This document shows positions 50,874 through 55,547 of a stretch of DNA of 64,000 nt, one piece after another. Within the stretch, counting starts at the first letter, position 1; each line of letters begins with the position of its first letter. A program made the position numbers and the translations under genes. Below the pieces are notes generated by a model. That model ran no database searches. It saw only the letters and a list, made by a program, of their open reading frames with translations, and was not told the DNA's origin. The DNA comes from a virus (lineage: Duplodnaviria; Caudoviricetes), in IMG/VR virus record IMGVR_UViG_3300026549_000030, positions 177,997-241,996 of that record; one strand, written 5' to 3'.

Positions 50874-50955
50874 TAGCGGGTGAGGGACTCGAACCCCCGA
50901 GGCTTGCGCATAGGCTTATGAGGCCTACAAGATGACCAACTTCTTACAACCCGCA
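50874..50955 (-). tRNA. tRNA with CAU anticodon (Met or Ile2), atypical; no encoded CCA
   Basis: TAGGC-CTCATAA-GCCTA anticodon arm; GGGGG-TTCGAGT-CCCTC T arm; GCGGGT/ACCCGC acceptor stem. Confidence 0.85.
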
Positions 50956-50967
50956 ATGTTATTTCTG

Positions 50968-51041
50968 AGCCGGTGGAGGGATTCGAACCCCCGACCCTCG
51001 CATTACAAGTGCGACGCTCTGGCCAACTGAGCTACACCGGC
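50968..51041 (-). tRNA. tRNA-Thr(UGU); no encoded CCA
   Basis: Canonical cloverleaf GCCGGTG...TCGCA-CTTGTAA-TGCGA...TTCGAAT...CACCGGC; Bacteroidetes-type promoter at about 51118-51150 (minus strand). Confidence 0.95.
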
Positions 51042-53100: not shown

Positions 53101-53245
53101 CCGGCCAGGTTTCTTTTTCAGTGAACGCCGCATGGCGTTTTCTATGATTAGCATAGGGAACGATATACCTGTTGGCTACCCAACAAGGATTTACTATCTT
53201 GACATTCGTTATTCACTCCTGCCCGTAATCCCGCTTCCCGACGGG
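53101..53245 (-). ncRNA. Putative TnpB omega-RNA/reRNA (scaffold plus about 20-nt guide)
   Basis: Overlaps the tnpB 3' end; terminal hairpin AACGCC-ATGC-GGCGTT followed by CAC, resembling an IS200/IS605 right end at 53121; putative guide TGAAAAAGAAACCTGGCCGG. Confidence 0.55.
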
Positions 53246-54396
53246 ATGTTTGTTATATTTTCTACTTTCAATTCCTTGGCAACCAACGCCTGAGGGTGTA
53301 AACCCATTTTCTTTATGTTGATTGCCGCATTAATGTCCCTGTCATGTTCGGCGCCGCAGTGCGGGCACACCCACTGACGGTCATCTAATTTGAGTTCGTG
53401 GTTTACATAACCACAGTTGGAGCAGGTTTTCGAAGAAGGCTCATACTGCCCAATGAAAACAACATTCTTACCATACATATCAGCCTTGTAAGCAAGTTGC
53501 CTTGTAAATTCGTTCCACGCGGCACTTCGAATACTATTAGCAAGGCGGTGATTTTGTGTCATTCCTGTAATATTCAAGTTCTCAAGGCATACCGTATCGT
53601 AATCCCTAATAATTAAGGTTGATAACTTATGGAGGAAATCGCTTCTCCTGTTCGCTATCTTACGATGCAATTTTGCAATTTGAAGGCGTTTTTTCTCGTG
53701 CCTTTTACTCCCCTTCTGTGTTTTTGCAAATCCCTGTTGAAGTCCTGCAAGTCTTTTTTGCCCTTTTTCAAGGAATTTAGGGTTTCCGTACTTTATTCCA
53801 TTGGAAAGAATTGCATAATCTTTGATACCTAAGTCGATACCTACGGTTGTTTCCTCACATACCTTGGTTTTCGGCATGTTTGGTTTTCCGTCATCAACCA
53901 GTATTGTACACCAATAATCTCCACAATGGTCTTTGCTTACGGTAAGAGTACCCATTCTGAGCGTGGTATCAAAAACCCTATTTTCACAGAACTTTACCCA
54001 CCCTATAGTTGGAACAAACACCCAATTTGTTTCGAAATTAAATTTTGCCCCCTGAGGTAGGCGGAAGGAATCTGTGGAGTTCTTTCTCGATTTAAACTTT
54101 GGATAACCTTTCTTCGCTTTAAAAAAACGAGTAAAGGCATTATCCAAATTCCTAAGTGATTGTTGCAGTGACGCAGCGGAGGACAGTTTTAGCCATTCGT
54201 GTTCACCGTCCTTTTTGAGTTTTGTAAGTTCGCCACAAAGTTGGACACAGGAGATTGATTTCCTTTCTTCCTCCCACACCTTCTTTTTCATGTCAAGCCC
54301 CCAGTTATAAACGAATCGAGCATTGCCGAAGGCTTGGGACAATGACTTGCATTGTTTAACCGTCGGTTTTAATTTGTATTTGTATGCTCTCATCAT
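53209..54396 (-). CDS. tnpB: TnpB/Cas12f-like RNA-guided RuvC nuclease (395 aa), no adjacent TnpA
   Basis: MRAYKYKLKPT HTH start; RuvC motifs GIDLG, CLENL and DRDINAAINI intact; CSNC/CPHC zinc ribbon. The ORF-track extension to 54606 is only the translated repeat array. Confidence 0.92.
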   Translation of the reverse strand: MMRAYKYKLKPTVKQCKSLSQAFGNARFVYNWGLDMKKKVWEEERKSISCVQLCGELTKLKKDGEHEWLKLSSAASLQQSLRNLDNAFTRFFKAKKGYPKFKSRKNSTDSFRLPQGAKFNFETNWVFVPTIGWVKFCENRVFDTTLRMGTLTVSKDHCGDYWCTILVDDGKPNMPKTKVCEETTVGIDLGIKDYAILSNGIKYGNPKFLEKGQKRLAGLQQGFAKTQKGSKRHEKKRLQIAKLHRKIANRRSDFLHKLSTLIIRDYDTVCLENLNITGMTQNHRLANSIRSAAWNEFTRQLAYKADMYGKNVVFIGQYEPSSKTCSNCGYVNHELKLDDRQWVCPHCGAEHDRDINAAINIKKMGLHPQALVAKELKVENITNIPSGSGITGRSE

Positions 54397-54458
54397 TTTA
54401 TAAAAAATCTTTTTTATTATAAATAGTTGCTTGTCTGAAAAAGTTCGAAGGGAATCGG

Positions 54459-54560
54459 GGTGTCGGTTTACTATAAATTCAATGGATTTACAACTTTCCA
54501 TTATATATTCAATTGGTAGTAGCAGGTGTTGGTTCACCACAAATTCAATGGATTTACAAC
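54459..54560. CRISPR. Mini CRISPR array: 36-bp repeat, 30-bp spacer, 36-bp repeat
   Basis: GGTGTCGGTTTACTATAAATTCAATGGATTTACAAC (54459-54494); spacer TTTCCATTATATATTCAATTGGTAGTAGCA; GGTGTTGGTTCACCACAAATTCAATGGATTTACAAC (54525-54560); 32/36 identical. Confidence 0.75.
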
Positions 54561-54857
54561 CTTCTCGTTCTATCTTATTGATTTTCCGAGCAATACACGC
54601 GCACACCGACGCGCAAAATTCCTAAAATTATATTGCATTATGTCATATTTGTTCATTTTTTAGCCAACAGGTATATCATTTCCTTAGCATATATACATTA
54701 TATCTTTCCTCAAAAGGCATGGACGTTTGTAGGAGTTTGTCAACAGTCAGATTCAGTACGTTGTCCAACTTCTCATATTCTTTTTTAGAAAGGATGCCCT
54801 TCGCCTTGGCTTCAAGGCTGTACAGTTTGTTATTTAATATTTCAGGAGAGGGACGCA

Positions 54858-55547
54858 TTAATCTGTCTCCTCTCCCTTCAACTGAGCAAGCACCTTCTCA
54901 AGTTTCTGAATCATCAAATCCTTGAACGGCACCTTTCTTACACCAAAGAATGAACCATTGTCGGGAACGTATGCCTCAATCTCAGTAGTAACCTTCTCGT
55001 CGCAGGAAGCCACAAGCTCCACGATATCCTTTGCCATCATCAGGGTTTCTCCGTTAATGATAGAGGAAATGACGGCAATGCCGCTCTCGGTATCCTCTAC
55101 GTCCTGAGAGAATGAGAGCCCGCCGAAGCTGCTGACGATAGAGACAGTATCGTTGTCAAAATTATCCTTGACGCTGAATGACAGCCTGAACACCGGTCCA
55201 ATGCTTCTTGTATAGGTGTCTGCCGTCCATCCGTCCTTGCTGCGCTCGAATCCGAACTTTTCCTCCATATGGTAGATAATCTGTGAGGAGATACGGCAAC
55301 CTTTTCTCATTAACGGATTGTATGTATCCACAGGATAAGGAAGTGATTTCTCCCATTCGAGAAGTGCATTGTTCAACTCCTCAACGGTAGAATATGATTT
55401 ACCGTTGAAAATAGCCTTGCCATTCTTGAGGGCAATGTTGCCACAATAACCTACACCATAGGTGAACTCTCCACTCTTGCGATAGAGTGAAATATCCTTG
55501 TTGTCACCGAGGATGTTAAACTTCTCTTTTAAATCTTGTCTTGTCAT
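54858..55547 (-). CDS. Hypothetical protein
   Basis: ORF after a minus-strand Bacteroidetes-type promoter (about 55571-55603). Confidence 0.7.
   Translation of the reverse strand: MTRQDLKEKFNILGDNKDISLYRKSGEFTYGVGYCGNIALKNGKAIFNGKSYSTVEELNNALLEWEKSLPYPVDTYNPLMRKGCRISSQIIYHMEEKFGFERSKDGWTADTYTRSIGPVFRLSFSVKDNFDNDTVSIVSSFGGLSFSQDVEDTESGIAVISSIINGETLMMAKDIVELVASCDEKVTTEIEAYVPDNGSFFGVRKVPFKDLMIQKLEKVLAQLKGEETD

Follow-up and report, generated by a model that had tools for sequence, protein, structure and literature searches.

A TnpB gene, a putative omega RNA and a mini CRISPR array on a non-autonomous IS1595-type transposon of a jumbo phage

Can a transposon-encoded TnpB nuclease take guides from a CRISPR array that lies just upstream of its gene, and how did the two come to stand together? 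The question is raised by a locus in the last 64 kb of a 242-kb virus record from IMG/VR (IMGVR_UViG_3300026549_000030; Caudoviricetes), and we refer to the whole of this 64,000-nucleotide stretch as the window. An initial annotation, made from the sequence alone, proposed that the phage had domesticated a TnpB of 395 amino acids (aa) as a nuclease programmed by CRISPR RNA (crRNA), of the sort that led from TnpB to Cas12. We consider it probable that the locus is instead an RNA-guided nuclease module with two guide sources, carried by a non-autonomous IS1595-family transposon, a recent arrival at an intergenic site of a jumbo phage. The module would consist of an ISDra2-like TnpB, a 3' omega RNA whose last hairpin is made from the right inverted repeat and, at the left end, a diverged duplicate of the omega-RNA 3' scaffold (P1, P2, linker and terminal hairpin module) behind a promoter-like site. 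The terminal hairpin module of that duplicate would be the 36-nt repeat, followed by the 30-nt spacer and a decaying second repeat.

TnpB and the scaffold-and-array unit upstream of its gene

The nuclease (labelled P0001) combines helix-turn-helix, RuvC and zinc-ribbon parts (Pfam HTH_OrfB_IS605, OrfB_IS605 and Cas12f1-like_TNB; E 1e-15 to 1e-25) and aligns over its full length with ISDra2 TnpB (8bf8/8h1j; E 4e-74). Its D-E-D triad (D188, E272 and D354) is invariant in an alignment of 26 homologs. The initial annotation was thus right to describe a 395-aa TnpB with all three RuvC acidic residues, and right that TnpA is missing, as tnpA was found neither in the element nor in the window. A protein search returned thousands of TnpB relatives, the closest at 90%, 85%, 75% and ~68% identity. 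Relatives of at least 53% identity were found exclusively in large phage contigs, and the top match in a cellular genome, a Bacteroidales metagenome-assembled genome, has 50% identity. TnpBs whose elements bear terminal inverted repeats (TIRs) form a clade with tree support of 100/100, here called the TIR clade. Because the backbone within this clade is unresolved, the tree does not decide between one and several origins of the array; it labels L008 as having none, though the L008 array is cut by the contig start. A ACTATTTATAAT...AAAAAG motif upstream of tnpB is kept in all relatives, whether an array is present or not, and a weak promoter-like match lies ahead of the gene at 54423-54395.

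The initial annotation also reported a 36-30-36 bp repeat-spacer-repeat unit 62 bp upstream of the TnpB start with GTTGTA...ACACC ends, and the coordinates agree with it. The two repeats (R1 and R2, Table 1) match at 32 of 36 positions and read GTTGTA...ACACC on the minus strand, the end of R2 is 62 nt from the tnpB ATG, and the spacer is unique within the 242-kb phage record. We gathered the loci of relatives from protein-search contexts and from scans of IMG/VR and metagenomes, and twelve distinct array loci emerged (the window, L008, L011, L023, L027, L189, L194, L197, L198, L250, L204 and L246). A conserved 55-nt leader is followed, just upstream of tnpB, by one to four copies of a repeat of the same 36-nt family (36-37 nt across the clade arrays). 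Leaders and repeats are near-identical between array loci, and the position of the array relative to tnpB is constant across TnpBs of 53-100% identity.

The spacers differ throughout. At least 23 were extracted from the arrays by script, no two of them alike; of these 23, 18 are 29-30 nt long and 21 begin with T. At TnpB identities of at least 90%, the number of spacers runs from none in L007, a 90%-identical element that has the leader and one repeat, through one in the window to two in L189, whose TnpB N-terminus is 96% identical to that of the window. The single repeat of L007 equals R1 of the window except at 2 hairpin positions. Two or three spacers each are present in L011, L023, L027, L204 and L246, and those of L189, L011, L023, L027 and others differ from the window spacer. 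The expectation raised by the initial annotation, that the repeat would co-occur with different spacers in homologs, therefore holds: the same repeat stands in the same place with zero to three spacers, all different. In every related array the leader-proximal repeats are intact and the repeat nearest to tnpB has decayed or lost sequence in its 3' part, which, together with the varied spacers, argues for growth of the CRISPR type at the leader end and not for tandem duplication. The marks of a CRISPR array are thus all present: direct repeats of one length, spacers that are unique and nearly uniform in length, a leader, and decay of the distal repeat. The window, with 2 repeats and 1 spacer, is the minimal form of an array that reaches 4 repeats and 3 spacers in relatives.

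Two of the arrays stand without a tnpB. In L204 (1312-1640), after the leader and three spacers, the last repeat passes into a terminus of right-end type (hairpin plus GTATAT...), an arrangement that is either an array cassette devoid of tnpB or a deletion through recombination between the repeat and the right-end module. In L197 there is an array with no TnpB nearby.

The leader and first repeat resemble the 3' scaffold of the element's own omega RNA. At the 3' end of tnpB, reaching the right end of the element, sequence and fold (z = -2.25 in the window) point to a putative omega RNA, or right-end element RNA (reRNA). This region is alignable across the whole TIR clade, in the order hairpin P1 (CCCGYYGG..CGGG), second stem, AAGAUAG, GUAAAUCC, variable hairpin and right end. 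A covariance model (model R1), built from six 3' omega-RNA scaffolds only and with the last 13 nt of the inverted repeat omitted, finds all 3' omega RNAs with 26-87 bits. The same model matches the leader and first repeat of the window over its full length on the tnpB strand (54526-54615, minus strand; 21 bits; E 1.3e-3 in 139 kb, and 3.8e-5 in 4 kb with filters off). Full-length left-end matches on the tnpB strand are also found in 10 further loci, among them L009, L027, L011, L023, L189, L007, L204, L250 and L198, the E-values for leader plus first repeat ranging from 2e-6 to 0.03. The 3' omega scaffold and the left-end unit are collinear over ~90 nt, and since the model ends at the 3' end of the repeat, the spacer occupies the position of the guide. 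Judged by this homology, the left end is a second omega-RNA-like scaffold with the spacer at the predicted guide position. More distant members of the 100/100 clade have the same ends and 3' omega RNA, and lack the left-end unit.

Base pairing in the unit is conserved. Among 12 left-end units, P1 is kept through G:C to A:U and C:G to G:C changes and the repeat hairpin as U:A, U:G and C:G, while the second stem co-varies by eye (CUCG/CGAG, CUCA/UGAG, CUU/AAG). Single repeats fold no more stably than shuffled sequences, the hairpin being backed by conservation and covariation alone. The repeat and the right end of the element both finish in CC, followed by T. The promoter-like site ahead of the leader, TGAACA-17-TATAAT, is the best consensus match of the region (10/12) and is conserved by eye in L007 and L189. 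The collinearity of the two scaffolds, the polarity of the array and the direction of this site, the sole good candidate, favor direct homology and transcription in the tnpB sense over an anti-repeat that pairs with the opposite strand of the array. No consistent long-range partner for the last 7 nt of the right end was found in the upstream omega RNA across the clade, and Rfam gave no family in the window besides two tRNAs and none matching an omega RNA.

The strongest indirect argument that TnpB uses RNAs from the scaffold and array comes from the lineage of L198 (2335-3670), L228 and L250. These loci encode an intact 375-aa TnpB (P0122) with the D-E-D motifs present. The scaffold and array sit 49 nt before its ATG, and the next gene begins 12 nt after its stop codon. 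Inverted ends are absent, and model R1, run with filters off, finds no 3' omega RNA. Thus, if the nuclease works, the upstream unit would be its sole source of guides. This lineage is an immobilised, CRISPR-only stage of the same clade.

Table 1. Features of the tnpB element and its target site, in window coordinates
Feature	Position	Strand	Description
Element	53156-54683	-	1,528 bp; 23-nt inverted ends; 8-bp direct repeat TATGCTAA
Left target-site duplication	54684-54691	(-)	8 bp TATGCTAA, identical to 53148-53155
Left terminal inverted repeat	54661-54683	(-)	GGAAATGATATACCTGTTGGCTA; IS1595-family type; 92% complementary to 53155-53178
Promoter-like site TGAACA-17-TATAAT	54627-54655	(-)	Directed into leader, array and tnpB
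Leader (second omega-RNA-like scaffold)	54561-54615	(-)	Hairpin P1, stem P2, AAGGUUG linker
Repeat R1	54525-54560	(-)	36 nt; leader-proximal, canonical copy; 3' end of the match to covariance model R1
Spacer	54495-54524	(-)	30 nt; position where the omega RNA would bear its guide
Repeat R2	54459-54494	(-)	36 nt; TnpB-proximal; 4 mismatches, weakened hairpin
tnpB 5' region	54397-54458	(-)	62 nt; conserved ACTATTTATAAT...AAAAAG motif, probable tnpB promoter
tnpB	53209-54396	(-)	395 aa; RuvC D188/E272/D354 intact
Omega-RNA scaffold (putative), 3' part	53169-53247	(-)	Overlaps last 13 tnpB codons and extends into right inverted repeat; 87 bits
Right terminal inverted repeat	53156-53178	(-)	Inner half CCAACAGG forms the 3' side of the last omega-RNA hairpin
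Right target-site duplication	53148-53155	(-)	TATGCTAA; first nucleotides of a flank-derived guide, should the guide start where the transposon stops

The IS1595-type carrier

The tnpB gene is the sole open reading frame (ORF) of a discrete element, to which the range initially assigned to the system, 53101-54684, corresponds roughly. Its insertion can be read directly from a sister phage. L304, a phage contig found through a flanking 95-aa protein, has flanks identical to those of the window with a single TATGCTAA and no element, and therefore represents the empty site; the exact empty-site sequence had no match in IMG/VR. L301 is the same phage from another sample and shares both the insertion and the spacer with the window. 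A 60-aa ORF upstream of the element (window 54676-54858, minus strand) ends within the duplicated target and left inverted repeat, which means that the insertion replaced its original C-terminus as seen in L304. The proposed domestication of TnpB by the phage does not survive these findings: the locus is a recent non-autonomous IS1595-type insertion with its own putative 3' omega RNA, absent from a near-identical phage.

Perfect 8-bp duplications also flank the TnpB elements in L009, L018, L022/L024 and L026, as well as L280. When IMG/VR was scanned for the end sequence, 46 stretches of phage DNA matched, and 7 of the 46 TIR loci bear an IS1595-type transposase. The clearest parallel, L280 (2685-4884, in a 147-kb phage contig), is an autonomous IS1595-family element with 25-bp perfect inverted ends (GGGAACTATATACCTGTTG...) and an 8-bp duplication, TTATTATC. 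It encodes a 331-aa DDE transposase (Zn_ribbon_IS1595 and DDE_Tnp_IS1595; PF12762 and PF12760) and a passenger with BspA-type leucine-rich repeats. In L280, L281 and other loci it is IS1595 DDE transposase genes that lie between these ends. No match to the IS1595 transposase (PF12762) was found in the 242-kb record, and since neither the element nor the record has such a transposase, the element is non-autonomous.

The 8-bp duplication is known for the IS1016 group of the IS1595 family (PMC10045372), whereas IS200/IS605 elements have neither inverted ends nor a target duplication (PMC13565253). The window element has both, has no Y1 TnpA, and shows no fixed flanking motif at its ends. It is thus a non-autonomous IS1595-type transposon and not a member of the IS605 family. 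The sole Y1 TnpA of the phage belongs to a separate, canonical IS605. That element (G000:C1:11246-12705; loci L004 and L306) lies outside the window, 166 kb away, where the gene for the Y1 TnpA (132-aa frame, PF01797, E 1e-42) immediately precedes that of a second TnpB with 42% identity to P0001; this IS605 has no inverted ends. Inverted ends were likewise not found for the more distant phage TnpBs of L004, L029 and L032.

The ends recur in other arrangements. Pairs of the size of miniature inverted-repeat transposable elements (MITEs), 165-615 bp apart, occur in L256, L262, L265, L271, L275, L276, L284 and L300 and are common in jumbo-phage contigs. Pairs 1.3-2.8 kb apart (L260, L261, L269, L294 and L298) may hold other cargo. 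In L017 (1290-1420) two copies of the left-end inverted repeat lie 75 nt apart upstream of one tnpB, which suggests a nested or tandem insertion of related elements. Outside the element, ~2 kb away, are the two tRNA genes mentioned above, which are adjacent (window 50875-51041, minus strand; Rfam 72.9 and 35.8 bits).

Competing explanations and the proposed mechanism

Several observations speak against a working array that guides the window TnpB. A protospacer was found for no spacer in any search made. The window spacer had none in IMG/VR or in the phage's own genome and, at up to 3 mismatches, no match in 36 related phage records; the L023 and L027 spacers gave self matches only in IMG/VR; the L023 array had no protospacer in INPHARED; and none of the 23 spacers had one in the collected loci (~1.8 Mb of DNA). 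Cas1 and Cas2 (PF01867 and PF09827) were not found in the 242-kb record, which is 68% complete. No array matching the repeat pattern (23 fixed positions, at most 3 mismatches) was found in 401 Bacteroidales genomes, the single matches being at chance level (7, against 7 in the reversed control). The promoter-like site is no more than a match to the consensus, of a kind that occurs at chance frequency. The two scaffold copies differ in spacing: the homologous part of the 3' copy stops 13 nt short of the flank, those 13 nt being inverted repeat, whereas the left-end spacer follows its scaffold directly. Finally, the window array could be a relic, as it has one spacer and a decaying second repeat, and its closest relative is spacerless.

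Two partial matches to the window spacer deserve mention. A 16-nt identity at G000:70832-70847 was rejected as a protospacer and attributed to chance, as it amounts to 17/30 overall in an unrelated coding context. In L270 (5599-5619), a 317-kb jumbo phage, positions 10-30 of the spacer match at 20 of 21, with the first 9 nt unmatched, just upstream of and across the start codon of a 117-aa ORF; either chance or a diverged relative of the true protospacer may account for this. As no spacer target was found, the initial suggestion of use against competing phages is unsupported and remains a guess.

The array might serve a host CRISPR effector, as a phage mini-array or a solitary-repeat hijack, and be transcribed and processed by host Cas proteins, TnpB being a mere neighbour or fellow passenger of the transposon. 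Host class 1 and type II/VI arrays commonly have 36-nt repeats and 30-nt spacers with GTTG...CAAC-like ends, and since the phage has no adaptation module, host machinery is needed at least for spacer uptake. Yet the 401 Bacteroidales genomes yielded no matching array, which leaves the initially asserted likeness to Bacteroidetes type II and VI-B repeats unsupported, and the pattern was also absent from the 4 genomes with the nearest cellular TnpBs. Metagenomic type I arrays (Cas6/Cas3) that share the repeat-starting 12-mer, in L191 and L240, would favor a host effector, but the likeness was forced by the search pattern and the leader polarity is opposite. For the same two reasons the type I arrays of L187, L191 and L240, which share the first 12-14 repeat nucleotides, were set aside. 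Those at L191:1300-1820 and L240:1100-3090 (Cas6, Cas3-HD) are unrelated arrays (36-nt repeats, 30-nt spacers); their reverse strand begins GTTGTAATTCCATT. An exact 20-mer of the repeat had a lone match in IMG/VR, by chance, in a giant-virus coding region. Furthermore, the array always lies inside the tnpB element or directly upstream of tnpB, at TnpB identities of 53-100%, and its leader is an omega-RNA paralogue and not of host type. We therefore regard service to a host effector as very unlikely. The probability that chance or replication slippage merely duplicated a 66-bp segment in one phage is practically nil. There are only two copies in the window, the second 89% identical, as such an event would leave; however, a tandem duplication would repeat the inter-repeat segment, which here is a unique 30 nt, and the presence of the same architecture with other spacers in many phages refutes it.

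It is also conceivable, though unlikely, that the left-end unit, a structured part of the transposon at the RNA or DNA level, guides nothing, and that its spacers are by-products without a targeting function. It might titrate TnpB as a decoy or regulator, control tnpB as an element of its 5' untranslated region, or bind the transposase or a host factor. The location of the unit in the tnpB 5' region would suit such roles, and L007 and L009 keep the conserved scaffold and a single repeat with no spacer; the failure to find targets in the searches made and the orphan arrays of L204 and L197 point the same way. What such an element leaves unexplained are the precise insertions of 29-30 unrelated nucleotides with a 36-nt duplication in at least 12 loci. 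Members of the TIR clade that have no array lack the unit altogether, so it is not needed for transposition or for tnpB expression, and in the L198 lineage it is the sole guide-like RNA for an intact nuclease.

We thus favor a module in which TnpB draws on both ends of the transposon. The sequences show the anatomy, the insertion, the turnover of spacers among relatives, the homology and strand of the scaffold and the lineage with scaffold and array only; transcription, loading by TnpB, cleavage, the targets and the machinery of adaptation we infer. The left-end unit would be transcribed in the direction of tnpB, and TnpB would load an RNA of scaffold, R1 and spacer as it loads omega RNA and would cut spacer-matching DNA beside a target-adjacent motif (TAM). 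We judge that TnpB probably does use this left-end spacer RNA. Where relatives have longer arrays, the scaffold would serve the downstream repeat-spacer units in trans, which is the 'functional RNA split' of TranC systems. Spacer uptake would take place at the leader-proximal repeat, with duplication of that repeat. The most likely agent of uptake, though this is an economical guess, would be host Cas1-Cas2 acting in trans, because of the tight 29-30-nt ruler and the precise duplication of the repeat. A likely use would be in conflict among co-infecting mobile elements or phages. Of the initial proposal, the coupling of TnpB and array of the TnpB-to-Cas12 type is well supported, physically and evolutionarily, by the arrays of homologs and the scaffold homology; its domestication part fell away.

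More tentatively, and just short of an even call, we propose that one phage-restricted TnpB clade preserves, side by side, all the stages through which a transposon nuclease becomes a CRISPR effector, and that the carrier is a DDE transposon (IS1595) and not IS605/IS607. IS1595 ends would initially have captured TnpB and its omega RNA. The 3' scaffold of the omega RNA would then have been duplicated into the left end, giving rise to the leader and the first repeat. Spacers would have built up while the unit hopped among jumbo phages, a step represented by the window and by the empty site in the sister phage. Once the ends and the 3' omega RNA had been lost, a fixed unit of scaffold, array and nuclease would remain.

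Significance and comparison with known systems

The path from TnpB to Cas12 has been explained by functional RNA splitting, but where the first repeat and leader came from, and whether the system was still mobile at the time, are less clear. The clade described here gives a testable answer, in which the leader and first repeat are a cis-duplicate of the omega scaffold inside a transposon that is still inserting. Sister elements with 0, 1, 2 and 3 spacers and one derivative without transposon features are available for comparison. If this is true, type V CRISPR arrays can arise by duplication of a guide scaffold in cis, and a self-contained, mobile CRISPR-TnpB borne by a transposon would be a weapon that spreads horizontally between phages. 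Carriage of a prokaryotic TnpB by a DDE cut-and-paste transposon (IS1595) breaks the link between TAM and insertion site that TnpA dictates, and this may have been a pressure favoring a programmable source of guides. It parallels the capture of Fanzor by eukaryotic transposons. On the practical side, the clade would offer nucleases of 375-395 aa with two predicted natural guide formats.

Among systems of similar appearance, the hypercompact type V effectors of phages (Cas12j/CasPhi, Cas-lambda and type V-U/Cas12f-like) share the setting of huge phages, mini-arrays without adaptation genes and a single RuvC effector. They differ in that their effectors are diverged, larger or dependent on crRNA only and do not reside in transposons, whereas here an unmodified TnpB is accompanied by a putative omega RNA. 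With ISDra2-type TnpBs (IS200/IS605, including the IS1341-like elements that have tnpB only) the window protein shares its domains, triad and size, and a predicted 3'-overlapping omega RNA that extends to the right end. In IS200/IS605, however, Y1 TnpA moves the element beside a fixed TAM-like motif (PMC13565253), whereas the window element has inverted ends, a target duplication and a second guide locus. With IS1595-family insertion sequences and their derivatives (transporter insertion sequences and MITE-like forms) the element has in common its TIRs and its 8-bp duplication, and variants of MITE size or with cargo are abundant in the same phages. It differs from them in the lack of a transposase and in its cargo, a predicted RNA-guided nuclease with an omega RNA that would incorporate the right inverted repeat.

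The closest likeness is to TranC, the transposon-CRISPR intermediates described in 2025 (Jin et al., Cell). These are nucleases of the TnpB lineage that are associated with CRISPR arrays and use both reRNA and crRNA, the coupling being explained by a functional split of the reRNA (PMC13565253, PMC13639567). The nearest member, CauTranC9 of clade 9, is reported as an active, TnpB-sized protein from a Caudoviricetes genome with 38-bp repeats (10.64898/2026.03.27.714800), and viral TnpBs adjoining arrays have been noted (PMC12607003). We compared the window system with LaTranC by alignment (PDB 9jfo/9jfq) and with clade 9 by its published description. As in TranC, a TnpB-like RuvC nuclease without domain expansion stands beside a short array that lacks cas1 and cas2, the carrier is a phage, a right-end RNA and guides of the CRISPR type both appear to be encoded, and the repeat is related to the 3' end of the reRNA scaffold. 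The coupling is also kept across relatives, with twelve arrays at TnpB identities of 53-100%. We conclude that the locus is very probably a functional or recently functional TranC-like module.

The differences from TranC concern the protein, the carrier and the first repeat. The window TnpB is nearer to ISDra2 TnpB (4e-74, full length) than to LaTranC (1e-36, C-terminal half only). Its array is housed in a transposon that is still mobile and is of the IS1595 type, not of IS605/IS607. As a duplicated scaffold runs straight into the first repeat in cis, no RNA split would be required for the first guide. Repeat length is 36-37 nt (38 in CauTranC9), with 0-3 spacers per array, and CauTranC9 is active, whereas RNA-guided activity of the window system is predicted from its sequence. 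In the literature we found no paper linking TnpB with IS1595, and no description of an array within a still-mobile DDE transposon, of a leader and first repeat that are a cis-duplicate of the scaffold, or of a series within one clade that runs from no unit through a single repeat and 1-3 spacers to the loss of transposon features. Thus, TnpB with an array is a category already known from TranC, and what is new is the IS1595 carrier and the staged series within one clade.

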